Part shown: positions 1,382-33,055 of the stretch, piece after piece | Layout of the letters: the number at the start of each line of letters is the position of its first letter | Numbering within the stretch: position 1 is the first letter of the stretch | Source: Escherichia phage SRT8 | Length of the DNA stretch: 49,579 bases | Reading direction: 5' to 3' (one strand) | Sequence record: MF996376 | Position numbers and translations under genes: made by a program | The notes under the pieces: generated by a model | What the model was told of the DNA's origin: nothing | Databases searched by the model: none | What the model saw: the letters and a program-made list of their open reading frames with translations, nothing else

Positions 1382-1401
1382 CCCGCTTCGGCGGGTTTTT
1401 T
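1381..1401 (+). terminator. Rho-independent terminator (ACCCGC-TTCG-GCGGGT plus T6)
   Basis: Perfect stem with T-run directly after the 437-1381 stop. Confidence 0.7.
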
Positions 1402-1410
1402 ATTTCCCTA

Positions 1411-1439
1411 TTGCCGCACACATAACACAATGCTAAAAT
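1411..1439 (+). promoter_or_regulatory. Sigma70-like promoter candidate (TTGCCG, 17-bp spacer, TGcTAAAAT extended -10) upstream of the tail fiber gene
   Basis: Hexamer spacing counted from the sequence; the palindromic element 1451-1465 lies in the predicted leader. Confidence 0.45.
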
Positions 1440-1481
1440 CATGGTTTACCAAATAGTGCTATTTACTTGGAGGATTTACAA

Positions 1482-3299
1482 ATGGCTTTATACAGACAAG
1501 GCGAAGCGTCAATGACGGCAGAAGGACAAGTAACGGGCGTCGGTACTCAATGGCGCGAACCGTTATCCCTGATCCGCAAAGGCGCAACTATAGTTTTCCT
1601 TACTACCCCATTGAAGCTGGCGGTAATCAACACGATCGATAGCGATACGGAAATGACCGCCATTACGACGGACGGCGAAGCGGTGGCGCAATCCAAATAT
1701 GTGATCCTGTTGAATGACTCGTTAACCGTTGACGGCATGGCGCAAGACGTAGCCGAAACGCTTCGTTACTACCAGAGCAAAGAAACGGAAATAGAGGAAG
1801 CAATTGAATTCTTCAAAAACTTTGACCTTAAAACATTACAGGATCTTGTTGCTCGCGCGGAAGCCGCCGCTCAATCGACAAGTGCGGATCGTGCTGCCAC
1901 TGAGCAATTGAAGAATGAAACCAATCAGTTCAGGGCTGGGGCGTTAAATGCTCGTAATGAAGCGGAGGACGCTCGCGACGCCGCTGATATTGCAAGATCT
2001 GGCGCTGAGACTGCAAAGTCTGGCGCTGATACAGCAAAGGCTGGCGCTGAAACTGCGCGTGATGAAGCTCGCCAATGGGCGCAACAGGTACAGCCTGAAA
2101 ATCTGCTGCATAAAGATCAAAACCTTAATGATCTTGCAAACAAAGACCTTGCAAGGAATAATTTGGGCATTGGTGAAACTGACATTCCTGTTTTTAGAGG
2201 AATAAGCCTAACAGAAAAAAACTCTGCAAACTCTGGAATTCTTTATTTAATAAACAAAAGTCCAGAAGATGTACAGCTTTCATACTCAAGAATTTACAAC
2301 GAAATTCAAGGTGGATTAGCAAAATCAACAATACAAGTTACTAGGGAAGGTGGCGACACAAACTATTATCAGTTTGATGAAAGCGGTAACGCGCTGAATT
2401 ACAACTCAATAACAATCGGTAGGGGTATTGGTAATGCTCTTGGCAGTAATTCTCTTGTTATTGGCGATACTGACACAGGTTTGAAATGGGGCAGTGATGG
2501 TGTTTTGCAAGTTTATTGCAATGGTATGAATGTTGCAGCTTATGAAGCGCAAAATATGCACCTTAACGGACTTTTAAATATATGGCCTGTTGATAATAAC
2601 GCTAGCGGCATTAGAGTTTCAGGATCTAGATTTGGGGGCAGCAATGCGTTAATCGGTGGTCAAGTAGCCCCTGGAAGTTTTGAAGTATGGCGAGAACGCG
2701 CTTGTGGTATGCTTGTTGAATTACCTGTTGATGATGCGGCAGTAAACGTCTTTAAGGTTGTTCGATGGGGTGGAGATTGGGCTGCTGGTCTTGATGTTGC
2801 CAGATATAGCGCTGGAGGTTGCGAAGCTCATTTTAATGTAAGGGGCGCTGTTTATGGGTTTAACGATTCTGGTTATGCGTCTGCTGTGCAATGGGTTAAC
2901 ACTTCCGATATTCGCCTGAAAGCAAACCTAAAAGAGATTGAAAGCGCTAAAGAAAAAGTGAAATCAATAAAAGGTTACACTTATTTTAAGCGCAACAATC
3001 TTGATGAAGATGAATATTCTTTCTATTCGGAGGAGGCTGGTGTAATAGCTCAAGACGTGCAAACTGTTTTACCGGAAGCGGTTTACAAGATTTCAGATTC
3101 AGAATATTTAGGTGTTAGCTATGGCGGTGTTACTGCTCTTTTGGTTAACGCGATCAATGAAATGATTGATGATTCAGATAAGCAGAATAAAACTATTCAG
3201 GCTCAACAGGAGGAAATTAAAGAGTTGAAAAACGAGATCGCAGAAATGAAAGCCGCAATTGCGGAAATGCAAGCGCTTATTGTCCAAACTGCTAAGTAA
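1482..3299 (+). CDS. Tail fiber protein with C-terminal intramolecular chaperone (peptidase S74-like) domain
   Basis: C-terminal SDIRLKANLKEIE...EEIKELKNEI region typical of auto-cleaving chaperone domains; Ala/Asp-rich repeats DARDAADIARSGAETAKSGADTAKAGAETARDEA; ATG at 1482 has a GGAGGA RBS (track start 1467 is TTG). Confidence 0.8.
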   Translation: MALYRQGEASMTAEGQVTGVGTQWREPLSLIRKGATIVFLTTPLKLAVINTIDSDTEMTAITTDGEAVAQSKYVILLNDSLTVDGMAQDVAETLRYYQSKETEIEEAIEFFKNFDLKTLQDLVARAEAAAQSTSADRAATEQLKNETNQFRAGALNARNEAEDARDAADIARSGAETAKSGADTAKAGAETARDEARQWAQQVQPENLLHKDQNLNDLANKDLARNNLGIGETDIPVFRGISLTEKNSANSGILYLINKSPEDVQLSYSRIYNEIQGGLAKSTIQVTREGGDTNYYQFDESGNALNYNSITIGRGIGNALGSNSLVIGDTDTGLKWGSDGVLQVYCNGMNVAAYEAQNMHLNGLLNIWPVDNNASGIRVSGSRFGGSNALIGGQVAPGSFEVWRERACGMLVELPVDDAAVNVFKVVRWGGDWAAGLDVARYSAGGCEAHFNVRGAVYGFNDSGYASAVQWVNTSDIRLKANLKEIESAKEKVKSIKGYTYFKRNNLDEDEYSFYSEEAGVIAQDVQTVLPEAVYKISDSEYLGVSYGGVTALLVNAINEMIDDSDKQNKTIQAQQEEIKELKNEIAEMKAAIAEMQALIVQTAK

Positions 3300-7439: not shown

Positions 7440-10400
7440 TTACCATACGCCAGTAATTCTACCAATCTGGACGCGAAGAACGCCATTCTGATCTCTAACG
7501 CTGATCGTCTGGTTATCCTGCTTCATCGAACCCTCGCCCGGAGTTGAACCGAAGTTAAGGAACGTGCCGTCCTTCCCTAAGTGCCACCCCGACTGATTCC
7601 ATACATAGTTGTTTGATTGAATGTATCCACCAATCATGGCATTAGTGATGAATCCGTCCTTAATCACCGCGCTACTTAGTATTACCTGCCCGCCCTCAAC
7701 GATAAACGGGTATCTAATTTGATTATTAGCACCGTTATAGATCGCGAATCTGTCGGCCTCAAACAGAAGTTGCGATTTAACACCACCCACACCAGAAGCT
7801 ACAAGCGACATTGCGATTCCGGCGCTGTACTGCTGCCCGTTGTACGTCAATCCAAGCTTAACTCCATACATCGCGCCGACTGAATCAACGTTAGCCCACG
7901 AATCAAGTTTCTGATTCAATGCCGCTTCGTTGTTTCCGATCCTTGCGCTTAACGCCGTGTCCGCCGTGGTTCTCGCTTCCGTTTCGTTGGCGATTGCCTG
8001 TTGAACCTGCGTTAACTGCGCCTGAATATCGTCGCCTACAGCCGCGCGTAAATCTTCAATTTCCTGCGATAGCGCTTCCGTTTCCGTGGCGATAACCTGT
8101 CGAAGTTCGGTATTCTGCGCGTTAATCCTTCCGTCGAAATCCGCTTCCATCTGCGAAACTTGCGTTACGCGGGCTTCCGTTTCATTCGCGATAAGCTGTA
8201 ACGACTCTTTAATCTGCGCCGTGAATTTTCCGTTCTTCACTCGCTGAATTCGGACGTCTTTGTCGTTCGCTAACGCGTTTTCGATTGCCGATTCCGCCGT
8301 GTTCTGGATTCTTGCGATCGCGTCGGTTGCGTTCTCCTTCAGCCACTGATAGCCCGGCGAATTCTCAATATCAACCTTAATTTCTCCGATAATGCTTTCC
8401 ACATCAGTAGACGCCATCCCCGGTATTAAGTTAGTCCACGAAGACACGTTGCCGATTTTGTCGATGGCGCGAATTCTATAGAAAATCATCTTCCCGGCCT
8501 CAAGCGGAGTATGGAAATACTCATGTTGCGGATACGGGACTAACGTTAGCAACGATGCATTTTCTACGCTGTTGTTTGGCGATTGCTGCACCTCTATGTA
8601 AGCCGTGTCGCCGGAGTCTTCAGGCATACCCCATTTTAACCGGATGCCGAAAACAACGTCGTCGGATGCCGTAAAGTTAATTGGCGCTCCCGGCTCGCCT
8701 ACCTTGCCAGTTAACCCAACAGTTACAACCTCAGACCACACGGAAGCATTTTCCGAAGAAGAGATAGCGCGAACCCGGACGGAGTATTCACCCGCGTAAA
8801 TACCTTCGACGAATGTTTCGTTAGTTTGTGTGCGAGGAACGTTAATCCAGTTTCCGTTATTCTTGCGCCATTGCACCTCGTAAAATGCCGCGTAATCGAC
8901 CTTATCCCAGCTAATGACCATCGTTTCTACGCTCAAGCCCTGCACTACTCGCGAAAACGATTCGACCGCTACGTTTTTCGGTGATGGCAACTTATCAGGA
9001 TCTACGACACTTGTCGGCCTGTCGTCCACATTCACGCCGTAGTCGATCGCGTCGTATTTGTTCGGGTCATACTCAACAGCCGTGATGCTGAATACGAACT
9101 CTTCGTCGCCGTCGCCCTTCTTGATATCGGTCACAACGTATTGTTGCAATGCAACGTCGGTTCGGTCGATAGCAAAGATAGTGTTTGGCGCGACGTCAAA
9201 GCCGAACCCTACGTTTATTTCTATCGTCTTGCCGTCTGGTGACACTGAAGAAATAGTGCGCTTAACGGGCTTTCCATCCGGCTTATTTACGACAATAAAA
9301 TCACCAGCGCGGGCGTCAACACGAAACGCCGTAAAAATCTGCAACCCTGATACTTCCATGACTCGCCCGGAAAGGTTTAACGTAAGATTGCTTGACCAGA
9401 AATTATCTGCAATCGCCACGACGTCGCCGATTTGCGGGATCATACCTTCCAGCCCGGTAGCAAAGTTAACCGTCGTGCTGCGAAGGTTAGTTCGCAGAAT
9501 CCAGCGTCCGCGCCTGTTAGCCTCGCTGCGTCGCGTACATCCGATCGCTGTAATGCTTGTCGGGTTATTGCCGAAGCGTCGCGCCGCGTCAGTATCGAAT
9601 ACAGGTTCAACGTCCTGTTGATATAAGTTTTCATGATCATCAAACTGCACGTTGCAAGTCGTGTACATGCTCTTTTCGCTCGCGAACGAGTAAGAGAAGT
9701 TACCGCCGACTACGTTTTCGTTGGTGAAAATGTAAGACGGGTCGCGCGGCTTATCGATCACGACAGATAAACTTTCGCCATTCCAAAACGACATACCACG
9801 GAAGATTGAACAGATATCGCGAACCAGTTTAAACGCTTCAATCTGCGACTGAATAACCACATCGCAAAGGTAACGCGGTTCGGTTCCGCCTTTTCCGTCT
9901 GGAACCATCTGATCGCAATATTGCCCGGCTTCGTATAACGCCCACTTATCGACATTAATCCCTAACTCACGCTGATCTAACCCGTAACGTTGGTTCGTGA
10001 TGATATCGTAAAGAACCCATGCCGGGTTATTACTCCACGCCTTTTTGAACGTGCCGTCCCAGCTTCCGTTATAGTCGCGGGTAATCGGGTTATAGTTCGA
10101 CGGGACGTTAATCACCTTCCACTTTTTACGAAGCGAAATATTCGGGATCTGCGTCGGAAACATCTTCGAATCGAATTCCACGAATAACAGACCAGTCAGC
10201 GGATAACGGAATTTAGCGTCGATTACTTCCGCATAGCTTTTCAACTGGATTTCGTCGATCAGGTTAGAATCGTCGGAATCAGGAGTAACGCGCGACACTC
10301 TCACGATTACTTGACTGTTGAACGCCGGAAGATTGATTCGGCGGCTACGGTCATAACCCGACATTGTTTTACCGTCGATCACGTCGGTGAAGTATTCGGT

Positions 10401-13089: not shown

Positions 13090-13443
13090 CTATTCCATAG
13101 ATGTAAACTGTTCGGAAAACGTAGCGCGGATTTCGTTCAATCCCGGCGCGATCGGGGTAAGCGCAACCGAACCAGACTTCACAATGAACAAGCCTAATTG
13201 TTCATCTGGCGGAAGCCATAAAAACGGCTTCAGTCGATGCCCGGTACAAAATGCCTTAACCGCCTTCCAATCATTGCCAGCGTATACGATCGTAAACTCC
13301 CGGCGCTCAGTGTTAAATCCAGACGATGCAACTTGCTTGTAGCCGTTACCGAAAACGACTTCCCTGTCGTTGTTCTCGGTAGTCATTGCGCCGCCGCTAT
13401 TCTGAATTTGTGTACACCATGTAAATTCGTCTAGCGTCGCCAT
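13090..13443 (-). CDS. Minor tail protein (lambda gpM-like)
   Basis: 117 aa, between tape measure and L as in lambda. Confidence 0.7.
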   Translation of the reverse strand: MATLDEFTWCTQIQNSGGAMTTENNDREVVFGNGYKQVASSGFNTERREFTIVYAGNDWKAVKAFCTGHRLKPFLWLPPDEQLGLFIVKSGSVALTPIAPGLNEIRATFSEQFTSME

Positions 13444-13446
13444 TGA

Positions 13447-16152
13447 TTAGCCTCCTGTTTTTTCCATAATGTAGGTGTAAGCTTTGCCACCTTGTGAAAA
13501 CGATTCGTTAATCATTTCGTTGCAGATCATACGAATGCCCTGCTCAAGCCCTTTTGGATCGTTGCCGTTATTCACATCGACTCGCATCCCGCTAACGTCG
13601 ATATAGTTCCCAGCGCCAGCGCCACCGCTTGAAAGCGTTAACCCTGCTCCGCGCGAAGCATTGCCAACTGAACCGCCGTTCGCATAACCGCGCATTAGTC
13701 GGTTTAGGTTGCCAACCCCGATCCGGCTTGTCGCCTCCTTCGTGAACACGAATTCACCGCCGTGAACTACGCCTTTCGGTTCGTACTTGCCGCCGTTCCC
13801 GGTATAACCGCCATTAGCAAACCCGCCCGCAAAACTCCACGTAGAGCCGCCCATCATACCAGAAATCGAATTGAAGATTACCATCTTAGTAATCATCTGG
13901 ATAATCTGGCTAATGATGCTCTTAGCGAAATCTGCGAAGTTCGCTTCACCGGTCATGAGGAATTCCGCCATCATATCAGACATTCCCGACAGCGCGTTCG
14001 AAGCAATGTTCCCTACATTATCATACATGTTAGTTGCTTCTTCGCCGTAGGTGGCAAATGCTGATTGCGCCCCAGCCAGCCAATCGCCGCGTTTTTCGTC
14101 TTCGGCTGCGTAGTATTTTTCTTGCGCTTCCTGCATACGCTTGAACGTGTCGTCCTCAAGACTTCCGCCCTTCGCTAACCAATCCGCTTGCATCTTCTGG
14201 CGTTCCGCTTCACGTTGTGCCGCAAGTGCGCCCATGCTTCGCGTATCGTTTAGCGTCTTCGTTGCCTGTTCCATTTGCAACACGAATTTAACGGAATCTT
14301 GATTCAACTGGTTTAGCCGTTCCTGCTGCGCAATCTGATCGCCTAGTTCGGCTTTCTGTTGTGCGCGGGCTAGTACCTGTTTCTGTTCCAGTAATAACGC
14401 TTGCTCCGCATTTGTTAACTTGCGTGTGGATTGCGCTTCCTCCAATACCTGAATCTGTCCTTCGACAGCCCATAGTGCTTTACGCTGTTGCGAAATGCGA
14501 TCGTTAATGCTGGCGTGTTTTTGCAGTGTCACTAACTGCGCCTGAAGCACGTAAAGCTCTTTGTCGAGTTGCTCGGTAGGTGCTCGCGTGATACCGCCAG
14601 AACCTTTCTTGCCGCCCTTCGTGCCTTTCTTCTTCTCCGCCTCCTTCGCCTGTTTCACTTCGTCTTCGCGAATCTTGATTAACTTTTGAGCGTTGGCGAT
14701 TGCTTCTTTATTGCCGGAAGCCGCGATCGCGTTGGCGTTCTTTCTCGCGTCGGCTAATGCCTTCTCAGCCCCGGCGACACGATCCGCCGCTAAATATTCT
14801 TTGTTAATCAAATCGACGGTTTTCGCTACATGCTTGTTACCTTCAATTCGCGCCGTGTTAACTTGCTGATTAAGCGTTTTAGCCTGTTCCAGCACTTTTA
14901 CAATCGGGTCAACTGCGCCGCCCAGCGCGACAGACTGTTTCCCTTCGTTCGCCCCGGTGTAATAGTTTTTCACCTCTTCCGCCGCATCGCTCCACGCGTC
15001 TTTGATTTCCAGAACCTTTAATCGGTGCTGTTCAATGTCAACGTTTAGCGCCGTGAAATCGCCCGATTTCTTGTACTGTTCGACACGCTGTCGCGCTTCG
15101 TCATAGCTGATCCCGACGTCTAACATTTTCTGTAACGACTCTTCCGCGCCGTCTTTCGTCGAAATGAAAGCTTTGATTACTTCGTCTGCTGATTGGTCGG
15201 CGGCTTTCGCGATCCCCATAATGTTCAAGGACAACCGATCAGCGTAATCGCCAGTAATCCCAAGTTGTGTATTGACTGCGGATTGAGTTTCCTTGATCTC
15301 GTTGCGGGTACTGACAACCTTATAAATCAGTGCTCCCAGCGCCCCAACCGTAACGCCCAATCCGACGTTAAGCGGATTCAGGAAAGACAACAGAACTTTG
15401 AACGTATTACCCAGCCCGCCGAAGCTGTCTTTAATCTGTCCGCCCTGCTGGATTGCTACCAACCAAACAGGCATACCGGAAGCAAGCGACGTTACAACGT
15501 CCGTAATCTGCGCCGGAAGCATTCGCATTGCTTGCGCATATTGCCCGGCAGAAACGCCAGCCAGTTTTAAACCCTTCGCCTGATTATTCAACTGCGCGAT
15601 AAATGGCGCGGCCTGTTCGCTTACGCCTAATTGCGCGGCCTTCAGTTCTAAAACTTCTTGCGCCGTCTTGCCAGCGAATAAGGCTTGCTGTTCTAAGCTC
15701 TTGATGAAGTTTTGCCCGGCCTTCGTTGCCACCTCCTTCTGGCGTGATGCTTCCGCCGCCGCTCGACCTTCAGCCGTTAACGCTTGCTGATTCTTGCGCA
15801 ATGCAACCTCTTGCGATTCCAGAACTTCGCCAAGCCGGAAGAATTCGTCGTCCGGTACGACGCCTTTTTTCCAAAGTGCGTCTAACTGCTTCGCCGTTTC
15901 GCGTAAGCGGTTCATGCTCTTGACTGTGGGATCGATAGCCGCTACAACGTTGGAGTATTCCTTCGCCTGTTTCGACAGTTCACGCGCGTGATCCTTTGCC
16001 TTCTGTTTCGCAACTTCCGTTTGATTTAGAAATTCATGGGTCGAGTCCGCCGCGCCGTCGTTCGCCTTCGCAAATTCACGAAGAGACTTTACAGCCCGAT
16101 CGACTTGCGATACGTCAACACCTAGCGACAATCCCGCGTATTGTTCCGCCAT
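13447..16152 (-). CDS. Tail tape measure protein
   Basis: 901 aa, long Ala/Gln/Glu/Lys-rich coiled-coil stretches, Gly-rich C-terminus; directly after the G/GT chaperone genes. Confidence 0.85.
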   Translation of the reverse strand: MAEQYAGLSLGVDVSQVDRAVKSLREFAKANDGAADSTHEFLNQTEVAKQKAKDHARELSKQAKEYSNVVAAIDPTVKSMNRLRETAKQLDALWKKGVVPDDEFFRLGEVLESQEVALRKNQQALTAEGRAAAEASRQKEVATKAGQNFIKSLEQQALFAGKTAQEVLELKAAQLGVSEQAAPFIAQLNNQAKGLKLAGVSAGQYAQAMRMLPAQITDVVTSLASGMPVWLVAIQQGGQIKDSFGGLGNTFKVLLSFLNPLNVGLGVTVGALGALIYKVVSTRNEIKETQSAVNTQLGITGDYADRLSLNIMGIAKAADQSADEVIKAFISTKDGAEESLQKMLDVGISYDEARQRVEQYKKSGDFTALNVDIEQHRLKVLEIKDAWSDAAEEVKNYYTGANEGKQSVALGGAVDPIVKVLEQAKTLNQQVNTARIEGNKHVAKTVDLINKEYLAADRVAGAEKALADARKNANAIAASGNKEAIANAQKLIKIREDEVKQAKEAEKKKGTKGGKKGSGGITRAPTEQLDKELYVLQAQLVTLQKHASINDRISQQRKALWAVEGQIQVLEEAQSTRKLTNAEQALLLEQKQVLARAQQKAELGDQIAQQERLNQLNQDSVKFVLQMEQATKTLNDTRSMGALAAQREAERQKMQADWLAKGGSLEDDTFKRMQEAQEKYYAAEDEKRGDWLAGAQSAFATYGEEATNMYDNVGNIASNALSGMSDMMAEFLMTGEANFADFAKSIISQIIQMITKMVIFNSISGMMGGSTWSFAGGFANGGYTGNGGKYEPKGVVHGGEFVFTKEATSRIGVGNLNRLMRGYANGGSVGNASRGAGLTLSSGGAGAGNYIDVSGMRVDVNNGNDPKGLEQGIRMICNEMINESFSQGGKAYTYIMEKTGG

Positions 16153-16905: not shown

Positions 16906-16930
16906 AAAAAGGGGAAGCAAGCTTCCCCGG
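16906..16930 (-). terminator. Intrinsic terminator after the major tail protein gene (GGGGAAGC-TTGC-TTCCCC plus T-run)
   Basis: Hairpin and T-run on the minus strand. Confidence 0.6.
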
Positions 16931-25247: not shown

Positions 25248-25274
25248 AAAAAAAGGCTGGAAAATTCCAGCCTT
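25248..25274 (-). terminator. Hairpin (AAGGCTGGAA-TTTT-CCAGCCTT) plus T7 between terminase and portal genes
   Basis: Read directly. Confidence 0.55.
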
Positions 25275-25287
25275 AATTATACCCGCT

Positions 25288-26859
25288 TTATTTACGCTTT
25301 ACCATTCCGGCTAAACGCTTCATTCGCTCGACAGGATCGTCGATTGTCAGAAGTTCGATGTTCGCCGCATCCATGAAGTTATCGACAATATCGTCGTGCG
25401 GGTGCGTATCGTCGTATGTGAACGCGCTATGCTCGGCGATGATTTCGGACAGCATAGGGTGTTCTTCCGGTAGCACCACACGCCCGGCTTTGATTACTGG
25501 CTGCGCATCCATCGCGCGAGTAACTTTATCTTTGTTACGCTGCAACGGCGTGATAGCAACAGGAGTTTTCTTCTCTAAGTTCTGGATCAAGCCCGTACCG
25601 CTGGCCTTATCTTCGACGTAAATCTTTCTCAGTACCCCCATTGATTTATTATGCCTCCACGCCGCGTTAACGAACGCTTTAAACTGCGTTTCCATTTCCG
25701 GCGCTTTCCATTTGCCGCGAACGCCGTCGATAAAGTACACCTTATCGTTTTTCTTACCCCATAAACAGAAGACAGTGTAGTCGTTTAGCTCGCCTGTTTT
25801 CTGCGCGGTATCGGCGGTAATGAAGCGGTAATCGAACTTGCCCGGTTCTGGTTCGTCGGCTTCTAAGCTGTTGCCGTAGTACGTCCACCACTCGGAATTA
25901 AACACCGCGCCGCCCAGCGCGATCGGACGCTGTTGATACTGCGAATCAAAGGTGTATTGGTCGGCCTCACGTAGCGCCATTAAGTCGTGAACGGTTTCCT
26001 TTTCAGGCCAAAAGCTATAATGCTTAACGCCGTCGATTAGCACGTATTCAGACGAAAGCACATCCTTTTCGAAGTGCGGTTGTAACCATTCAGGAAGTGA
26101 TTTCCCGTATTCCTCAGTTACTAGCGCCGGAATTGAAATCTGATCGAATTCTATCCCCATCCCGCCGTTCATCATGAACCATGTAGAATCCTGTGCGTGT
26201 AAGCGCTGCTGTATGGCGATAATCGGCGTTTCGTTGTGCATTCGTCGGCTTCGGATTGTGTTCTTTAAAAGCGTATGTGTGCGCTCTCGTTTTACCTTAG
26301 AAAACATATCGTCCGGCTTGTCGATATCGTCAAGCATTACCATACCGGAAAAGCCAGGAACCATATAACCGCCACGCGAACCAGTAATGCGACCGCCCGC
26401 CGCCGCTGAAATAAGCTCAAACCAGACCTTTCCCGCATTGTTTAGCACCTGCATTTCTTCATCTTTCGACGTGCCGAACGCGCAAGGCCATAGCTCTTGG
26501 AATTCCGGCGAAGAAATGATTTCGCGGACTCGCTTACTGTTACGCTTTACAAGGCTGTCGGCGAATGACACATTCAAGTTTCTGACCTTCTTCAGCTTCA
26601 GCATTGCATAAACTGGCAAGTGGATCGAAAAGACTTCCGTTTTCCCCGAACCCGGAGTCACGTTAAAGATCGTGTTACCGCGTCGCCCGGCGATAATCTC
26701 TTCGACTTCGTGGCACAAGTAAAGGTGATGCCAGTTAGGTAAAAATTGCTGTGCCTGTATCAACTGGAACCAGATCCGAATCATCTTTTCGAAGCTGGCT
26801 TCCGACATTTTCTTGATCGCAAGCTTTTGTGTTGCGTCCAGTTCTTCCCAAATTAACAT
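25288..26859 (-). CDS. Terminase large subunit
   Basis: 523 aa; N-terminal ATPase with GSGKTE P-loop-like motif and C-terminal nuclease-like half; position before portal. Confidence 0.8.
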   Translation of the reverse strand: MLIWEELDATQKLAIKKMSEASFEKMIRIWFQLIQAQQFLPNWHHLYLCHEVEEIIAGRRGNTIFNVTPGSGKTEVFSIHLPVYAMLKLKKVRNLNVSFADSLVKRNSKRVREIISSPEFQELWPCAFGTSKDEEMQVLNNAGKVWFELISAAAGGRITGSRGGYMVPGFSGMVMLDDIDKPDDMFSKVKRERTHTLLKNTIRSRRMHNETPIIAIQQRLHAQDSTWFMMNGGMGIEFDQISIPALVTEEYGKSLPEWLQPHFEKDVLSSEYVLIDGVKHYSFWPEKETVHDLMALREADQYTFDSQYQQRPIALGGAVFNSEWWTYYGNSLEADEPEPGKFDYRFITADTAQKTGELNDYTVFCLWGKKNDKVYFIDGVRGKWKAPEMETQFKAFVNAAWRHNKSMGVLRKIYVEDKASGTGLIQNLEKKTPVAITPLQRNKDKVTRAMDAQPVIKAGRVVLPEEHPMLSEIIAEHSAFTYDDTHPHDDIVDNFMDAANIELLTIDDPVERMKRLAGMVKRK

Positions 26860-26900
26860 TATCGTGATCCTATAGGGCGGACTAGCCGCCCGGTTAACTG

Positions 26901-27416
26901 TTAGAGCATATCAAGAACGCTGTTTACCGCGTCCTTCATCGCGTCTTCTGTGGTGGCAACAGCCGCCGCGCTCGACGTGTTGTCGATGTTAATCGACGCT
27001 GGCTTGTCGATGCCTAAGTCCTTGCCGATAAACGAAGCGTTAATGATGCCGTTTGCCGCAAGCTGGAATTTCTGTTCGTTGATAACGGAATCGACGAATT
27101 CCATAACTTCGGCATAGTCCGGTTCGGATCTGTACCGCGCGATCGTTCCGTCGCTCAGGTTGCAGAAAAGCTTAAACCCGGTAACGGTAAATACTCGCGG
27201 CTTATGCACTAACGACTCTTCTACATCGCCCTGAAAACTGGCAGTCTCAGCCGCTTTGATTGCGTTGTCTTCCGCCCATTCGAAATACTTAACCGCCAGA
27301 TCGAACAACTGTTTCGGCGTAGTCTGTCGTGTCTTGCCTAACACTGTTCCGAACTCTTTCCGGTATAGCTCTTTGAAGTTACCACCCTGAACGACGGGCG
27401 CTTTTTCCTGTTTCAT
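26901..27416 (-). CDS. Putative terminase small subunit
   Basis: Position directly upstream of TerL; start reassigned to ATG at 27416 with GAGGA RBS. Confidence 0.5.
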   Translation of the reverse strand: MKQEKAPVVQGGNFKELYRKEFGTVLGKTRQTTPKQLFDLAVKYFEWAEDNAIKAAETASFQGDVEESLVHKPRVFTVTGFKLFCNLSDGTIARYRSEPDYAEVMEFVDSVINEQKFQLAANGIINASFIGKDLGIDKPASINIDNTSSAAAVATTEDAMKDAVNSVLDML

Positions 27417-27432
27417 AGATTCGTCCTCACTG

Positions 27433-27450
27433 TTTAACATTTCGTGCTAT
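27433..27450 (-). promoter_or_regulatory. Palindromic element (ATAGCACGAAATGTTAAA) upstream of the TerS RBS, preceded by a TAATAT box and terminator
   Basis: Late-gene arrangement as for J and L. Confidence 0.45.
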
Positions 27451-27469
27451 TTTAGCATATTACAGGCAC

Positions 27470-27493
27470 AAAAAAACCCGCCGAAGCGGGTTA
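27470..27493 (-). terminator. Intrinsic terminator closing the leftward early operon (AACCCGC-TTCG-GCGGGTT plus T7)
   Basis: Hairpin nearly identical to the terminator at 1381-1401. Confidence 0.65.
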
Positions 27494-27510
27494 GTTTTCA
27501 ACCTGATTTT

Positions 27511-27741
27511 CTATTTGATGACTTTAAAGTTAATCGGCTTGTGGTGGCTGTAAGCTTTTGCGTATACCGCCGACAGGTCGCCGAAACAGTCCCATTCGTC
27601 ACGCTTGCGATCGTATGTCAACCATACGCCCGTTTTATGTTCCGCGTCGTGGTGAAGCGCGAAGGCTACAACAACGAACGCACAAAATGCACCAAAACCG
27701 AAAATCGCGATTGCCGCCAGAATGTAAAGAACGATAGCCAT
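27511..27741 (-). CDS. Small membrane protein
   Basis: Hydrophobic N-terminal segment ILAAIAIFGFGAFCAFVVVAFAL; AAGGAG RBS. Confidence 0.45.
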   Translation of the reverse strand: MAIVLYILAAIAIFGFGAFCAFVVVAFALHHDAEHKTGVWLTYDRKRDEWDCFGDLSAVYAKAYSHHKPINFKVIK

Positions 27742-27743
27742 TG

Positions 27744-27929
27744 TTAAATCTCCTTAACTAATAAAATGTTGAATTTGTGAGTTGCTGGATTCGCGCCTGA
27801 TTGGCCTTTCGCAATTGCGACAGCCTCTTCAGTGGAACCCGCTTCGATTTCTGCTTCGTAATGTTGACGACAGGTTTTGCACTGTCGCCCCATCTGCTTA
27901 ATTAGTAGCTTTACTGTGAATCGCTTCAT
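27744..27929 (-). CDS. Hypothetical small protein with a CxxC pair
   Basis: ORF only; start uncertain. Confidence 0.3.
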   Translation of the reverse strand: MKRFTVKLLIKQMGRQCKTCRQHYEAEIEAGSTEEAVAIAKGQSGANPATHKFNILLVKEI

Positions 27930-28059
27930 CTTCTTGCGCCTTCAGCATAACGCCACCGATTCGACCGATAACCGCTTCGCCCGGTTTTAATGATTTTTTG
28001 TAGCGGGTTACTTCGCCGTTACGGGTGACTTTGATTTCGATTTTGATATCTTGTTTCAT
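27898..28059 (-). CDS. Hypothetical small protein (53 aa), below the ORF-track length cutoff
   Basis: ATG with AAAGGAACC RBS-like sequence; read manually. Confidence 0.3.
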   Translation of the reverse strand: MKQDIKIEIKVTRNGEVTRYKKSLKPGEAVIGRIGGVMLKAQEDEAIHSKATN

Positions 28060-28222
28060 TTAGGTAGGTTCCTTTTAGAATTGATGCCGTGTACGGGTCT
28101 ACGGCGTTGGTTCCACAATCCAACCGAACTTACTACGAAAGTGCATCTATCGCGATGCGCGTTGCGCTCTATGCGCCTCTTTTGTCTACGGAAATAATGT
28201 TATCACCACTCAGGGACGAAGG

Positions 28223-28426
28223 TCAATCGTTAATTTCAAAATGTCCTTTCGTCATATCCTGCGGGAAGTCGATTTCGTGCAAGTTTCCATCGTCGCCGTA
28301 CACATAGACCAGGCGTTTAGCTTTGCTTACCTTCTCCACGTCGTACAAACAGCCATGCGAAAAGGCGTCGCCATTGCGTGACGTGATACAACGTACTTGA
28401 TCGTTTTTCTTCGGGAAGTGTGACAT
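28223..28426 (-). CDS. Hypothetical protein
   Basis: ORF in the early operon. Confidence 0.4.
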   Translation of the reverse strand: MSHFPKKNDQVRCITSRNGDAFSHGCLYDVEKVSKAKRLVYVYGDDGNLHEIDFPQDMTKGHFEIND

Positions 28427-28437
28427 TGTTAGATCTC

Positions 28438-28671
28438 CTATTCGTAGTCAAATTTGTTTCCAAAACGCCCGTTAAAATACCCGGCTAACCATATGAATTG
28501 TTGTCGCGTTACAAGGGTGTGAACTCCGTCCTTCTTGTGGTGCTCGTCGATTATGCGCTTTGCGACGTGATCGTATTTCGCGCCGCCTTCGATAGCCGCT
28601 TTCAACTCGGAAGACATTTCCCGGCAACGACGCTTAACAATATTCAAGTGCGCTTCAGTTAGTCCGAACAT
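28438..28671 (-). CDS. Hypothetical protein
   Basis: Start set to the ATG preceded by the conserved leader ACGGAGTAAGTAGA. Confidence 0.4.
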   Translation of the reverse strand: MFGLTEAHLNIVKRRCREMSSELKAAIEGGAKYDHVAKRIIDEHHKKDGVHTLVTRQQFIWLAGYFNGRFGNKFDYE

Positions 28672-28726
28672 TCTACTTACTCCGTTTGTTTTGATGGGGT
28701 TACTATATCGCAACCACGCGTTAATG

Positions 28727-28747
28727 GTTTAGCAATTCGTGCTAAAA
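28727..28747 (-). promoter_or_regulatory. Palindromic element cassette (TTTAGCA-ATTCG-TGCTAAA, a perfect 7-bp palindrome)
   Basis: Contains the stop codon of the upstream gene; followed by TATAGTAACCCCATCAAAACAAACGGAG leader. Confidence 0.55.
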
Positions 28748-29116
28748 GCGACCGGAACGACCGTTAACCGATACAACCTTTCCGCGCTTGCCGACGATCT
28801 CGTTATAAAGTGCGCCGCCAGCATTAACCGAATACTTCAGCGCCTCGGCTGGCGTGATATCGCGGAACATTTCAGCTTGACCGAATGACTTTTCCGCCGT
28901 TTCATTCTTGCGTCGCCACGCTTCGATCAGGTTCGGTAAAACACGTTCCGAACGCCACACGGCTAAAGCGGCCTGTTCGCTTGAATGCGGTAGCAATTGA
29001 CGCTCTACGATCTTGAACACTTCGCGGGCGATAGGAGTATCAAGTACGCCAGTTACCGAAAAACAGAAGTCGCAGAATTCGCGGGCTTGCTTCTCTGAAA
29101 GGTTAATCTGAATCAT
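28742..29116 (-). CDS. Hypothetical protein
   Basis: ORF in the early operon. Confidence 0.45.
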   Translation of the reverse strand: MIQINLSEKQAREFCDFCFSVTGVLDTPIAREVFKIVERQLLPHSSEQAALAVWRSERVLPNLIEAWRRKNETAEKSFGQAEMFRDITPAEALKYSVNAGGALYNEIVGKRGKVVSVNGRSGRF

Positions 29117-29304
29117 TCCGGTTTCTCCTTGGTAAAGAATCGACGCACATCTTTGCGATCATAATATGCGCCTTCGCTGTAATCTGATTCGCGTACTTCG
29201 ATAAACTGATCGCAACCGTCATACATGAAATCGCCGTCGTCGGTGAAAATCAATTCGTATTCGTTGCCGTGTTTGTCAAAGTAAACTTTTCCGGTGCAAA
29301 TCAT
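29113..29304 (-). CDS. Hypothetical small protein
   Basis: Start set to the ATG behind the conserved cassette leader. Confidence 0.4.
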   Translation of the reverse strand: MICTGKVYFDKHGNEYELIFTDDGDFMYDGCDQFIEVRESDYSEGAYYDRKDVRRFFTKEKPE

Positions 29305-29361
29305 TTTCGTTTCCTCGCTTTGTTTCAATAAGGACATTCTAACAAATGCCCTTGCGGAAAG

Positions 29362-29384
29362 TTTAGCAATTAGTGCTATTCGAC
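29362..29384 (-). promoter_or_regulatory. Palindromic element cassette, variant B (-10-like box inside a short inverted repeat)
   Basis: Motif followed by ctttccgcaagggcatttgttagaatgtccttattgaaa. Confidence 0.5.
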
Positions 29385-29582
29385 AATCTCCCAATCTTGC
29401 CCGGCAAGATGCACGCTATGTTTTAGCCGCGTGTAACATGGTGCGCCCAATTCGCCTTTGAAGCTGTAACAACCTTTAAACGAACCTTCTTCGCATAACT
29501 CCGCGTCGTAAATCTTAGTTGCCTTAATCCACGGCGAACCGTTATAAGTGGTGCGTATTCGGATCTTTTTCTTCTCTGTCAT
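29376..29582 (-). CDS. Hypothetical Cys-containing small protein
   Basis: ORF; GGGGAG RBS. Confidence 0.4.
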   Translation of the reverse strand: MTEKKKIRIRTTYNGSPWIKATKIYDAELCEEGSFKGCYSFKGELGAPCYTRLKHSVHLAGQDWEIVE

Positions 29583-29776
29583 AGTAATTTACTCCCCTTG
29601 CGGAATTCGTTTCGAAGCATATCGGCGGCGTCTAATCGACCATTTCGCCAGCCCAGCAAGTGACCGCCTAAGAACGCAAGAAACATCTCGGCGGCAACAA
29701 CGAAGCCGGAAGGCTGAAGCGCGATCGATAATGCGATGCAAGCCCAGCCGAAGATAAATAAAACCTTCATTTTCAT
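29579..29776 (-). CDS. Small membrane protein
   Basis: Two hydrophobic segments; cassette leader upstream. Confidence 0.45.
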   Translation of the reverse strand: MKMKVLFIFGWACIALSIALQPSGFVVAAEMFLAFLGGHLLGWRNGRLDAADMLRNEFRKGSKLL

Positions 29777-29834
29777 AGCGTAATTCCCTGATTGGTTGTT
29801 GATGGGGTAACTATAACAGCTTACCCCGATCCGG

Positions 29835-29853
29835 TTTTAGCAATTCGCGCTAT
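29835..29853 (-). promoter_or_regulatory. Palindromic element cassette (AAATAGCGCGAATTGCTAAAA, then hairpin, TGtTATAGT and leader)
   Basis: Read directly. Confidence 0.5.
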
Positions 29854-30428
29854 TTCAAATAGCGGCCTGTGATGACGCTTGCGGTGTAATCCGGGTCGCC
29901 GTCGCGCAACGTGAAGTCTTCTTCGGTGTACCCGTTAACGCCATGCCAGCCGACAGGTAAATGAAGATAGCTTCTGGAATCACCTTCGAACGTGAATCCG
30001 TCCCGGTGAAGTCGGCAAACATGAACCTGAATACCAGCTTCGATTAGTGCGATTGTCTCTTCAGTGAATCCGCCGTCAGTAATAACGGCTGGCGTGTCGC
30101 TTGCCTTAATCGCCTCCACCATGCGCCGCCCGAAATAATCATTTCCGAACTCAGGTTTAATGATTGTTTCGCTAATCCAGATCATGAACTCGCGCGGGCT
30201 TTTACCATTCAGGATAGAATCTGGCTTCTCTTTATGAAGTCGATCGTTATACAAGAATAAGAAATAATCGTAATTCGCGTCGCCCAAAATGGCGCGGGAA
30301 ATTTCAAACATCGGCGCTTTGAAGCTCAGCATGCGGACGCCTTTCCACTGGTTCATATCAGCGATAACACAACCGATCGTATCTTTGCCAATTCCCGGAC
30401 AGCCGTTAAGAATAATAACCTTGTTCAT
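29850..30428 (-). CDS. P-loop nucleotide kinase (deoxynucleoside-monophosphate kinase-like)
   Basis: N-terminal Walker A GCPGIGKDT and a late RDGD motif reminiscent of phage dNMP kinases; assignment from recalled family patterns. Confidence 0.5.
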   Translation of the reverse strand: MNKVIILNGCPGIGKDTIGCVIADMNQWKGVRMLSFKAPMFEISRAILGDANYDYFLFLYNDRLHKEKPDSILNGKSPREFMIWISETIIKPEFGNDYFGRRMVEAIKASDTPAVITDGGFTEETIALIEAGIQVHVCRLHRDGFTFEGDSRSYLHLPVGWHGVNGYTEEDFTLRDGDPDYTASVITGRYLK

Positions 30429-30535
30429 TATTTAACCCCTTTAATTACTTTCGCCACATCTACGATAACGCTATACATAATGTAAGCAAGAAAAAACGTT
30501 AATACCGGGTGCGCTTGCGAATGCGTAAAATTCTG

Positions 30536-31069
30536 TCATAACTTATCTACTCCGTGTGATTTCAGGTGTGAATGTACGTTGTCGCCGTAGTCGGTTACGG
30601 CATAGGTTGTTATTCCAATATTCCTAAAGTGTGGAATAACTGAAGGGCTATCATCCCACGCCGCTAAAATGCGATGCAACCCGATTTCGCGCAAAATCTC
30701 TTCTTTGATTACCGTATCCTTCCGGTTGTCGTCGTGGCGGCGCATGATCAGGAAATCATATTTCGCGTTGTGGTTCGCCAGCCATTCGCGCGACTCCTTT
30801 TCGACTTCATCGCTTCGCCCGGTTAGGATGATTACACAATGCCCGGCTGCATACATCGCATTCATTACCGCGATCGTGTTGGTAATCGGCGTGTCGAAGA
30901 TTGCCGCCCGGTTAAACTCGCTCCAACTTTCAGTTAAGTGAAGATCGGTTTTCGGTAGCAGGTGCAAGCGGTGCGTTCCGTCTGACAAAGTACCGTCGTA
31001 ATCAAAAATACAAATCATCCCGGACGGCGCGTTAGTGCGAAATTCTCTTCCGTATGCGTTAATCTTCAT
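30536..31069 (-). CDS. HAD-superfamily phosphatase
   Basis: DYDGT motif (FDYDGTLSD) near the N-terminus and a downstream acidic motif; start chosen at the ATG overlapping the upstream stop. Confidence 0.55.
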   Translation of the reverse strand: MKINAYGREFRTNAPSGMICIFDYDGTLSDGTHRLHLLPKTDLHLTESWSEFNRAAIFDTPITNTIAVMNAMYAAGHCVIILTGRSDEVEKESREWLANHNAKYDFLIMRRHDDNRKDTVIKEEILREIGLHRILAAWDDSPSVIPHFRNIGITTYAVTDYGDNVHSHLKSHGVDKL

Positions 31070-31191
31070 TATCGTAACCCTTCCCATTTTTCAGCCTGAT
31101 TTTTGCCGCGTTTCTGCGTCTTCTTAACTCGCTTGTAACCTTCGTCGAACTTCTTCGGCTTGCCGACAATCTTTTCGAAGTTTTGGCGCAT
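31069..31191 (-). CDS. Hypothetical small basic protein (about 40 aa)
   Basis: ATG behind the cassette leader CAAACAACAAAGGAG. Confidence 0.3.
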   Translation of the reverse strand: MRQNFEKIVGKPKKFDEGYKRVKKTQKRGKNQAEKWEGLR

Positions 31192-31243
31192 CGGTATTAC
31201 TCCTTTGTTGTTTGCTTTCAATGAGGACACTATAGCAATGCCC

Positions 31244-31266
31244 TCGCGGAAAGTCTTTAGCAAGTC
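31244..31266 (-). promoter_or_regulatory. Palindromic element cassette, variant B (TGcTATAGT in a hairpin loop)
   Basis: Read directly. Confidence 0.5.
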
Positions 31267-31273
31267 GTGCTAT

Positions 31274-31720
31274 TTACCAGTAGCTAATTTCTTCAATAAC
31301 GTAGCTGTCGAAGCTGGCTTGCGAAAAGTCGCTTTCGTAGTCGATGCGGAACGTTTCGATTAATTCGCTGATCGGGTAGCCAGATCTGAAGAAGTAGCCG
31401 TCTGCCATAGCCCGCGACCATTTCTTCGCGTCACGCTTGCACATACCGTAAGTGTTCACGGCCTCTTTGAAGAATGCGCGGTTCATCTTGCGGCGAATTG
31501 CGGTAACGTCCAGATAAGTAGCTGTACCGCCGTACACTTGATAATGATACCTGGACAGGCGCTTCATAATCAGATCCAGATCGCCCGGCTTGCAAATAAT
31601 CGCATCGGTGTGAAGGTAGGTTCGATACGGCTTGATTTCGGTTTCGTGACCGTAAAGACCGGTTTCCGCCATTTTGAGGCCGTCCGCTTCACCCTGAATG
31701 CACACGATCAGTTTGTTCAT
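31274..31720 (-). CDS. Hypothetical protein
   Basis: 148-aa ORF in the early operon. Confidence 0.45.
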   Translation of the reverse strand: MNKLIVCIQGEADGLKMAETGLYGHETEIKPYRTYLHTDAIICKPGDLDLIMKRLSRYHYQVYGGTATYLDVTAIRRKMNRAFFKEAVNTYGMCKRDAKKWSRAMADGYFFRSGYPISELIETFRIDYESDFSQASFDSYVIEEISYW

Positions 31721-31777
31721 TGTTGAATCTCCGTTTGTTGGTGTAGGGGGGAATCATAGCGCATTCCCCGTGATAGG

Positions 31778-31800
31778 TTTTAGCTTTTAGTGCTATTCAC
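31778..31800 (-). promoter_or_regulatory. Palindromic element cassette (motif overlaps the 3' end of the upstream ORF)
   Basis: AATAGCACTAAAAGCTAAAA followed by hairpin GGGGAAT...ATTCCCC and leader. Confidence 0.5.
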
Positions 31801-31998
31801 TTCGATAGTCACGCAAAAATTATCAAAACGATGCCCGCTTAAACGCGCTGTAATCACTTCTGGACGACGCAAAATCGCGTCAAGCAATCGCAAGGGTGAA
31901 TACTTAAAACCGTGATAGTGGGCGCTACGCTTCGAATTTGGGTTCATACCTGCTACCGCGTCCGCCGCTAAATCGTCGTAGTTCACATCACCAGCCAT
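31780..31998 (-). CDS. Hypothetical protein
   Basis: ORF in the early operon. Confidence 0.4.
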   Translation of the reverse strand: MAGDVNYDDLAADAVAGMNPNSKRSAHYHGFKYSPLRLLDAILRRPEVITARLSGHRFDNFCVTIEVNSTKS

Positions 31999-32105
31999 AA
32001 AGCCCCCTTCAAAACGTTAAGTACAATCAGCAATCCCAAAATCCCGGAAAGGAACCATAAAGGCGTATAGTCGGGCGGTTCATTCCAGTGTCCGGCGTCA
32101 ATCAT
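31986..32105 (-). CDS. Possible small membrane peptide (39 aa), below the ORF-track cutoff
   Basis: ATG with GAGG RBS; hydrophobic stretch LWFLSGILGLLIVLNVL. Confidence 0.3.
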
Positions 32106-32157
32106 CGTAAAACCTCAAGTTATGGGGAATCAATCAGCGACAGATTCCCCGTTAAAA

Positions 32158-32472
32158 TTACGCCACGCAAGCTACAGTGGCGACCAACAGGATCACGGCG
32201 GTGAAGATTGCCGGGACAATGTTTTCTTTGCGACGATACCACGGCTTTTTCGCTTCGTCGATTTCGCTTTGCGGTTTCAGCACTTGGAAGACAGCGCCCC
32301 GATCGGCGGCGAATGTTACGCGGTAGAACGTGCCGCCGTGAATCGGCATGCATGGACGCGCCCGGCCTTTGTCGTCGGCTGCGATGAAGTCTTTTTCGCC
32401 GACGCGCACAACGTCGTAAAATCCGCCGATGGTAAATTTATTGGTGTTGTTCGAAACGCATTTAGTTTTCAT
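32158..32472 (-). CDS. Hypothetical protein with C-terminal transmembrane anchor
   Basis: Start at the ATG behind the cassette leader; C-terminal IVPAIFTAVILLVATVACVA. Confidence 0.4.
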   Translation of the reverse strand: MKTKCVSNNTNKFTIGGFYDVVRVGEKDFIAADDKGRARPCMPIHGGTFYRVTFAADRGAVFQVLKPQSEIDEAKKPWYRRKENIVPAIFTAVILLVATVACVA

Positions 32473-32528
32473 TGATGTATCTCCTTTCGTTTGGTGTAGG
32501 GCTATTATGACATAGCCCCGATTCAGTG

Positions 32529-32550
32529 TTTTAGCAAAAAGTGCTATACG
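32529..32550 (-). promoter_or_regulatory. Palindromic element cassette
   Basis: ATAGCACTTTTTGCTAAAA then hairpin and AAAGGAG leader. Confidence 0.5.
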
Positions 32551-32846
32551 TAAACTTTGTTGCACAACGTGCCGGGCAGGATGTTAAACGACAGCATAAC
32601 GAAGTTGTTTCCGTTGTGCGTATCAGCGTTCGCCCGGTTAATGTACTTCGTTACGTCCGTCACATCGGTAATCAGTACACTAACTTCGCGCCCGGTGTAG
32701 TCGCCGTAATGCCACTCGCGCAAGCGCAACACGTCGCCCTCCTGAAAGTCGCGATCGTTCAATCTGAATTCGGCCTTCTTGCCGCCCATCTGGACGCCGA
32801 AAAAGTGAACAGGTTCGATCTTTAAATCGTGTTGCTTGCGTTTCAT
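32544..32846 (-). CDS. Hypothetical protein, possibly ASCH/PUA-like
   Basis: Weak pattern resemblance only (EFRLNDRDFQEGDVLRLREW). Confidence 0.4.
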   Translation of the reverse strand: MKRKQHDLKIEPVHFFGVQMGGKKAEFRLNDRDFQEGDVLRLREWHYGDYTGREVSVLITDVTDVTKYINRANADTHNGNNFVMLSFNILPGTLCNKVYV

Positions 32847-33055
32847 CGCCTACCAACCTCCCGGTAATCCATAGTCAAATCCAATTCCTTACAGCCGCAA
32901 GTGTGCATTTCTGTAGTGTTGACGTCGTGGTATTTGTTCATGCTGTACATTTCCTTCGCGATAATCTCGATCCTGTCGCTTGGGTGAATGTGCGATAACA
33001 GCCCTTCTAGCGTTACCGCCTTGCTGTCGATCTCAAATTGGCGTAGTCGTTTCAT
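32843..33055 (-). CDS. Hypothetical protein
   Basis: ORF, translationally coupled to neighbours. Confidence 0.4.
   Translation of the reverse strand: MKRLRQFEIDSKAVTLEGLLSHIHPSDRIEIIAKEMYSMNKYHDVNTTEMHTCGCKELDLTMDYREVGRR

Follow-up and report, generated by a model that had tools for sequence, protein, structure and literature searches.

A conserved, covarying RNA element with its own predicted promoter upstream of terS in phages of the Drexlerviridae

Analysis of a 49,579-nucleotide (nt) stretch of DNA from Escherichia phage SRT8 (record MF996376; hereafter, the window) revealed that the gap at positions 28060–28222 holds, on the minus strand, a conserved structured RNA element of ~112 nt (28078–28189), which runs from G28189 (GUAGAC...) to an AAUUC tail and lies behind a predicted sigma-70-type promoter (28197–28226). 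The element was found once, in the same slot 0.4–0.9 kb upstream of terS, in every Drexlerviridae lineage checked. We put the probability that it is a functional, transcribed, structured RNA with its own promoter at roughly 0.85, and classify it as a new family of phage-encoded structured small RNA. That it is a stand-alone gene for a stable, trans-acting small RNA (sRNA), sharing an RNA-gene slot with tRNAs, is given somewhat less than an even chance.

In SRT8, the element opens with a 13-nt segment, GUAGACAAAAGAG (28177–28189; family consensus GUAGACAnAnGAG), which starts at the expected transcription start, is unpaired in the structure models and is nearly invariant in alignments A3, A4 and A5. 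It is followed by hairpin H1 (GCGC-auaga-GCGC, 28164–28176), a conserved AACG directly 3' of H1 (28163–28160), hairpins H2 (GCAUC-gcgaua-GAUGC, 28143–28158), H3 (GUUGG-auuguggaa-CCAAC, 28106–28124) and H4 (GCCGU-agacccguac-ACGGC, 28086–28105), and a single-stranded tail, AUCAAUUC (28078–28085), which is a putative 3' end or processing site. H2, H3 and H4 are the minus-strand form of the inverted repeats that an earlier, sequence-only reading of the window had listed; H1 and the promoter were absent from it.

Across lineages, the common plan was found to be promoter, 5' GUAGACAnAnGAG, H1 (a GC-rich stem of 4–5 base pairs between a conserved AG and AA), AACG, H2, a variable linker that may carry extra hairpins, AAUCGG, H3, H4 and an (A/C)AUUC tail, with the CCGUAA motif of the H4 loop kept in most lineages. 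The length of the element ranges from ~60 nt in Webervirus, where the 5' motif, H1 and H4 alone are present, to ~240 nt in Rtp, the difference being due to inserted hairpins. Conserved nucleotides are found mainly in loops and junctions and the stems are variable; together with the inserted hairpins, this pattern is typical of an RNA that would fold and bind a partner.

Evidence for the fold comes from covariation. With an unguided MAFFT alignment of 11 sequences, RNAalifold recovered H1, H2 and H4, and 10 of the 15 pairs were changed on both sides. Paired cells amounted to 92.6%, compared with 75.4% in column shuffles, with none of 500 shuffles reaching as high a value, and the covariation score was 0.451 compared with 0.162 in the shuffles; as a control, sliding the partners by 1–3 columns gave 17–39% pairing. 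In a model-fitted alignment of 28 distinct sequences, which is biased towards the model, 89.4% of cells were paired (62.4% in shuffles), 14 of the 15 pairs were compensatory and the score was 0.471 as against 0.114. Broken down by stem, compensatory change was seen for all four pairs of H1 in alignment A5 (98% of cells paired), for five of the six pairs of H2 in the unguided alignment A4, and for H4 at three of five pairs in A4 and four of five in A5. H3 was missed by RNAalifold because its stem length varies between lineages.

A hand-curated table of the four stems in 21 lineages contained 373 Watson-Crick pairs, six G·U pairs, no A·C and four other mismatches. Each hairpin occurs in nine (H1, H4) or ten (H2, H3) stem versions, with all five pair positions of H4 changing; H2, for instance, reads GCAUC/GAUGC in SRT8, GUGAGA/UCUCAC in T1, GCAGCA/UGCUGC in NBD2, GCGC/GCGC in Rtp and GGUC/GACC in Phagiculus. 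Such a number of versions with pairing kept implies selection on pairing in a single-stranded molecule. The covariation analysis that the sequence-only reading had proposed thus revealed hairpins, including the three it listed, to be kept by compensatory substitutions across the Drexlerviridae. Two further helices were considered and set aside. A pseudoknot of ACG(G) after H1 with CCGU of the H4 loop fits many lineages and co-varies in Webervirus (AAG/CUU), fails in K62PH164C2, Phagiculus and TLS, and remains unproven; a closing helix, in which the 5' GUAGAC would pair with nucleotides 3' of H1 or H2, is plausible for Klebsiella phages, NBD2 and LF82-10, though not for T1 or SRT8.

Conservation was assessed by similarity and by covariance model. 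A BLASTN search with the 201-nt region returned 49 phage records at ~75% identity, all T1-like. Searches with the spacers of the distant relatives P818, AN_ECEAS, Phc and KL3 added 284 records, 162 of them Klebsiella phages, and most of these matches cover stretches without annotation. Loci were taken from the Tunavirinae, the Braunvirinae (Rtp, TR2, 12210I, ZL19, Msk, AN_ECEAS), the Rogunavirinae (phiEB49, Phagiculus), Nouzillyvirus (P818, ESCO41), Eclunavirus (Phc, Ec_L1), NBD2, LF82-10, Webervirus and other Klebsiella phages, and the Tempevirinae (TLS). A covariance model built from 11 sequences gave a single match in the window, at 28189–28078 (108.9 bits, expectation value (E) 9e-23), and one match in the expected slot in each of 28 sources; in TLS, a second-generation model gave one match (48.3 bits). 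Two scans of viral contigs for exact patterns yielded an identical set of 17 T1-like contigs, to which the first scan added two chance GC-rich matches. A host origin was excluded, with no match in 5,426 complete E. coli genomes. The absence of conservation that the sequence-only reading had named as grounds for abandoning its proposal was therefore not observed, the gap being conserved family-wide.

Some individual matches deserve mention. The next-best model match in the window (15.3 bits, 13404–13464(-)) consists of a partial 5' motif and a tail over a Shine-Dalgarno sequence and start codon, lacks H4 and was judged to be due to chance. The copy in Shigella phage vB_SsoS_008 (MK335533; 1696–1812 of the locus) shows a broken H4 (GCCGC/AUAAC), scattered substitutions and disturbed flanking open reading frames (ORFs), and is either low-quality sequence or a decaying copy. 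Annotated hypothetical coding sequences overlap the RNA or promoter in two phages, ESCO41_00044 (1367–1555(-) of the locus) and Phagiculus CDS0021 (776–949(+)), one of them on the opposite strand; both calls are probably spurious.

The promoter was identified by a consensus scan and by its fixed register in 26 of 27 lineages. In SRT8, the -35 hexamer TTGACC (28226–28221) overlaps the stop codon of the upstream ORF and is separated by an 18-nt spacer, carrying the TG of an extended -10 (28205–28204), from the -10 hexamer TAACAT (28202–28197), giving TGaTAACAT. A TAnnnT hexamer lies exactly 7 nt 5' of a conserved GTRRAC in these 26 lineages, with TTGACx or TTGCAT 17–18 nt upstream of the hexamer and an extended -10 TG as the usual arrangement. 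From the fixed 7-nt register of the -10, transcription is inferred to start at or next to G28189, so that the RNA would begin with GUAGAC. A promoter of its own, as expected of a classical stand-alone sRNA gene, is thus present as a predicted motif with conserved -35, extended -10 and -10.

SRT8 is a T1-like phage of the Drexlerviridae. Over the 1.3 kb round the gap, identity is 99.5% with Citrobacter phage IME-JL8 and 96.7% with Escherichia phage BrunoManser (Bas12), two members of Sertoctavirus (Tunavirinae, Drexlerviridae). All genes round the gap are coded on the minus strand; a 67-amino-acid (aa) ORF (28223–28426(-)) lies upstream and a 53-aa ORF (27898–28059(-)) downstream, and terS (26901–27440) begins ~0.6 kb downstream of the spacer. 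The spacer had been described beforehand as unusually long, free of ORFs and stopped in all minus-strand frames, and each of these statements agreed with our data. It measures 163 nt, contains 3, 6 and 2 stops in the minus-strand frames, with the three plus-strand frames also stopped, and is the longest co-directional gap nearby, other gaps in the IME-JL8 annotation being 108 nt or shorter. The homologous gap of T1 (164 nt) is the largest of 45, the next largest measuring 113 nt. Coding potential of the element was excluded by the stops in six frames and by lineage-specific insertion and deletion of hairpins.

The proposal that the spacer encodes a structured RNA or a regulatory site gained support on both counts, since both a promoter and a covarying folded RNA are there. 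A site acting at the level of DNA, such as a pac site, an operator using CCGTAGAC repeats or a replication origin, is very improbable. It would fit the location 0.6 kb upstream of terS, the inverted repeats, which could form in DNA too, and the two CCGTAGAC copies 87 bp apart. This direct repeat, to which the sequence-only reading had drawn attention, does exist (28191–28184 and 28104–28097) but is mostly a by-product, its second copy coinciding with the 5' strand and some of the loop of H4. In T1, CCGCAGAC stands at the second position, by which the base pair is kept and the repeat is not, and the second copy is not kept outside one clade. Over the entire window, CGTAGAC is not enriched, with 4 copies as against 4.9 expected. 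Further, it is pairing and not sequence that is conserved, whole hairpins are gained or lost between lineages, the element stands in a fixed register with a same-strand promoter and tRNA genes, and no GC-skew feature was found at the gap.

It was also considered that a promoter might merely be followed by an incidental, functionless 5' untranslated region (UTR), with hairpins that arose by chance or are neutral remnants of a decayed tRNA gene. A minimum free energy z-score of ~0 is compatible with this, as is the resemblance that the T1-clade versions of H3 and H4 bear to a tRNA D-arm and anticodon-type arm, in a slot that often holds tRNAs. Compensatory change in all but one of the modelled pairs is unexpected of neutral sequence, though, the element is kept in all sampled subfamilies, including those without tRNAs, and neither ARAGORN nor the Rfam tRNA models gave a match; the idea is scarcely credible. 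The tRNA likeness is limited to the T1 clade, and acceptor and T arms are absent. The H3 loop resembles a tRNA D-loop in T1 (AUAGUGGUUAA), NBD2 and LF82-10, other subfamilies being without a D-loop signature, and H4 begins 0–1 nt after H3, in the manner of an anticodon arm, though its loop, which ends in CGUAA, is oversized. A tRNA may have been the ancestor of the RNA's 3' half.

In 11 of 17 loci, ARAGORN detected a same-strand tRNA gene 3' of the element, and in eight of these 11 the tRNA starts 1–4 nt past the last model position in the AUUC tail. The types found were tRNA-Ser(GCU), tRNA-Arg(UCU), tRNA-Arg(CCU), and tRNA-Arg with tRNA-Val; Ser, Arg and Val tRNAs were apparently gained more than once. 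All tRNAs found in the loci taken sit directly after the RNA. A tRNA gene adjoining the element, in the same orientation and transcription unit, was thus encountered in relatives and not in SRT8, whose window contains no tRNA or transfer-messenger RNA gene according to ARAGORN and no tRNA-clan match at E up to 10. From established tRNA processing, an RNase P cut at the 5' end of a tRNA abutting the tail would release the RNA that lies upstream, leaving H4 close to its new 3' end. Several of these tRNA-Arg genes are unannotated, namely those of Rtp (NC_007603; 1152–1228 of the locus), AN_ECEAS (1587–1662), ZL19 (1086–1163) and Msk (1121–1198). In ESCO41, a tRNA-like sequence with a T-arm-like GGTTCGATTCC and a long extra arm follows tRNA-Arg(UCU) at ~1640–1745 of the locus; it received no ARAGORN call and may be a degenerate or unusual tRNA.

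Taken as a stand-alone sRNA gene, the element would work as follows. Host sigma-70 RNA polymerase would start from the promoter at 28226–28197(-), at or next to G28189, and produce the ~112-nt sequence comprising the unpaired 5' GUAGACAnAnGAG, H1–H4 with their conserved loops and junctions, and the AUUC tail, before running on through two or three tiny ORFs to a terminator at 27492–27475. The RNA itself would be the product, released from the primary transcript by endonucleolytic processing, by RNase P in the many relatives with a tRNA gene abutting the tail, and by an RNase E-type cut in the A/U-rich tail in phages such as SRT8; H4 would protect the 3' end after release. Early in infection, the RNA might then act on a partner in trans, be it a protein or another RNA, contacting it through its conserved unpaired nucleotides, that is, the 5' 13-mer, the AG/AA internal loop, AACG and the loops of H3 and H4.

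Several points weigh against this explanation. The transcription start, processing, stability, trans action and partner are all inferred. The RNA has no Rho-independent terminator of its own, there being no U-run after H4 and the first terminator lying ~0.6 kb downstream at 27492–27475, and in SRT8 it runs straight into the Shine-Dalgarno sequence of the next ORF, so that it could equally be named a 5' UTR. Its constant position is weak evidence on its own because synteny is high in the family in general. By folding energy, the sense strand does not surpass its shuffles (z = +0.11), and it is the antisense strand that does (z = -2.24). The asymmetry of G·U over A·C pairs favours the sense strand in the hand-curated stems only (6 vs 0); in the model-fitted alignment the counts are 6 vs 11, with all 11 A·C pairs in visibly misaligned rows, so that wobble-pair asymmetry is weakly informative. 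As single-sequence energy and repeat counts are unremarkable, the case for function is a comparative one, built on conservation and covariation and not on thermodynamics. Assignment to the minus strand was made mainly on the grounds of the promoter, the genes and the same-strand tRNAs. The antisense complement of the H1 region (28157–28176(+)) forms a hairpin followed by CTCTTTTGTC and was scored as terminator-like in a scan; this hairpin and the better antisense fold are probably a by-product of G·U-compatible complements.

One to four tiny ORFs come next, after the RNA or, in loci that have them, after the tRNAs. In SRT8 these are the 53-aa ORF (phrog_6666, T1 group only) with its Shine-Dalgarno sequence AAGGA at 28074–28070, a 61-aa ORF (27744–27929(-), phrog_2919), which all 20 lineages tested carry 3' of the RNA, and, as the last gene of the unit, a 76-aa ORF with a hydrophobic N-terminus (27511–27741(-), phrog_5976). 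The latter type usually follows phrog_2919; its weak match to DUF7299 scores below the Pfam cut-off in SRT8 and above it in P818. A word-index protein search with phrog_2919 returned close relatives only, and the neighbouring small proteins fall into PHROG families of unknown function, none being annotated as an antiterminator. The gene directly after the RNA varies by lineage, being phrog_6666, phrog_2919, another ORF or a tRNA, which implies that the RNA does not belong to one particular gene's ribosome-binding site.

This arrangement bears on the view that the element is a cis-acting 5' leader of the phrog_2919 and DUF7299-like cassette which, in the manner of the autoregulatory leaders of ribosomal-protein operons or of phage translational operators, binds a factor, possibly the phrog_2919 protein, and so controls the stability, processing or expression of its own transcript. 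We consider such a leader unlikely. H4 and the Shine-Dalgarno sequence do not overlap, the latter lying outside all conserved helices, and no riboswitch or attenuator platform was visible, whether as a terminator after H4 or as an alternative terminator/antiterminator pairing. Between the RNA and phrog_2919, many lineages have additional ORFs or one or two tRNAs; at the tRNAs, RNase P would sever the leader from the mRNA. The 13-nt unpaired 5' end is unlike a 5' stabiliser hairpin, and the eL20/PurS similarity rests on a small, common beta-beta-alpha-beta fold and is not specific.

The unit is closed by a strong intrinsic terminator, AACCCGCUUCGGCGGGUU plus a U-run (27475–27492(-)), an equivalent of which was found just upstream of terS in all 16 lineages scanned, with a start-to-start distance of 57–85 nt where terS is known. 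Directly after it lies an extended -10 promoter, TGCTAAAAT (27449–27457(-), regex hit at 27457), which is predicted to serve terS and the genes beyond. A TGnTAnAAT-type motif is present at the terS position in 17 of 18 lineages aligned, reading TGGTATAAT in many of those other than SRT8. With a promoter of their own behind the terminator, the packaging and structural genes would have their own start and the RNA unit would be insulated, which argues against a read-through leader.

On this junction, cis-acting processive antitermination, once our leading idea, was demoted. It had been supposed that the element acts like HK022 put or lambda nut/N on the terminators before terS and in the late operon. 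In its favour are the position of the element, close to a promoter and ahead of the packaging and structural genes, the pair of adjacent hairpins that makes up the minimal form in Klebsiella phages, and the need for read-through somewhere, given ~12 late terminators of which six leave no room for a promoter. Yet the strong terminator closes the unit, and late transcription can restart behind the RNA, from the terS promoter, whereas the action of put and nut is restricted to cis. Model R1 run on HK022 26000–33000, which we take to include the early/immunity region, reached 5.7 bits at best (E 1.2) on a record that does not annotate put; reading of 28078–28189 revealed no lambda-type boxA (CGCUCUUA); and no second copy of the element was found behind other promoters of the window. 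Antitermination is accordingly improbable. Two resemblances noted by eye were rejected as well. RfaH ops (GGCGGTAGnnTG) matches CCGTAGAC at ~5–7 of 12 positions, one copy lying at +1, where ops cannot work, and the other not being conserved; the rrn/lambda boxA matches the AUUC tail partially and in the Braunvirinae only.

To compare the element with known RNA families, the whole window was searched against Rfam 15 at gathering thresholds, which gave no match; for 27800–28500 at E up to 10, two sub-threshold chance matches were obtained (16.9 and 16.6 bits). The element is unannotated in any record examined, and the curated T1 record, which does annotate ribosome-binding sites, terminators and promoters, is blank at 7591–7742. 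No description of the RNA was found in the full-text literature searched, the scope of which left out most subscription journals, including the 2004 T1 genome paper.

Several characterised systems share features with the element. The T4 'species 1 and 2' RNAs (rnaC/rnaD) are small, structured non-tRNA RNAs of unknown function in a tRNA cluster, co-transcribed with the tRNAs and released by tRNA-processing nucleases. As judged by description, the Drexlerviridae RNA is like them a structured non-tRNA RNA beside phage tRNA genes; it differs in standing at the 5' end of the transcript right after its own promoter, with ORFs following, and in persisting in most relatives that have no tRNA. The thrU-tyrU-glyT-thrT-tufB operon of E. 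coli is a mixed tRNA-mRNA operon with one promoter, the parts of which are separated by RNase P. Here, too, an untranslated RNA and then coding sequence follow one promoter, but the first product is a non-tRNA RNA without Rfam match. HK022 put RNAs are likewise promoter-proximal and built of hairpins, the minimal Webervirus form of our element consisting of two adjacent hairpins; no similarity was detected, and since the terminator and fresh terS promoter part the RNA from the late genes, a cis antiterminator would be pointless there.

In Stx phages, tRNA genes are located downstream of the late promoter PR'. The T4 stable RNAs and StxS/lambda 6S are the closest analogues of the Drexlerviridae RNA, neither being a homologue. 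StxS/6S is reported to be a short transcript from the constitutive lambdoid PR' that doubles as a trans-acting sRNA and, like the RNA described here, is a phage RNA from a sigma-70 promoter just upstream of late genes (PMC7547250). StxS is bounded by tR' and Q-dependent, unlike the Drexlerviridae RNA, which has neither its own terminator nor a Q/qut context and is a multi-hairpin, covarying RNA.

As to the role of a trans-acting product, the RNA could be an early anti-host effector, a compact folded decoy or sponge, made from a strong promoter within minutes of infection, that binds and neutralises a conserved enterobacterial protein or RNA; this we hold to be quite unlikely. In one version of the decoy idea, a tRNA-derived mimic with D-arm, anticodon-type arm and CGUAA loop would be directed against an anticodon nuclease or other RNA-targeting defence. 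The phage family also encodes a T4-type polynucleotide kinase. If true, the decoy or sponge reading would make the element a family-wide RNA counter-defence factor of a new class.

A promoter-driven RNA that covaries strongly and is kept in each of the subfamilies sampled very likely plays an important part in infection. T1 belongs to the original seven T phages, and the Drexlerviridae, which include therapy candidates, rank with the coliphages and Klebsiella phages isolated most often. The ~110-nt target is cheap to test in an easily engineered phage. An existing RNA-expression slot that tRNA genes join would explain their single landing spot in the family, and a seed alignment with a model for the new RNA family would improve phage genome annotation.

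The late block of SRT8, with its ~12 strong intrinsic terminators, showed some further features; T1 and TLS have the same density (11–12 terminators). Six terminators of the structural operon, ending at 25253, 21520, 19612, 19255, 16178 and 7413 (-), are directly followed by GGAGG and ATG, too closely for a promoter to fit in between, as is the case ahead of the portal gene, so the genes behind them must be expressed by terminator read-through. In addition, terminator-then-promoter cassettes recur, at 27492–27449 and after the terminators ending at 16911, 13057 and 10920 (-). They are composed of a strong hairpin with a U-run and, within ~10 nt, CCTGTAnAAT or, as before terS, TGnTAnAAT, and have the appearance of terminators fused to late promoters of the extended -10 type, which lack a -35.
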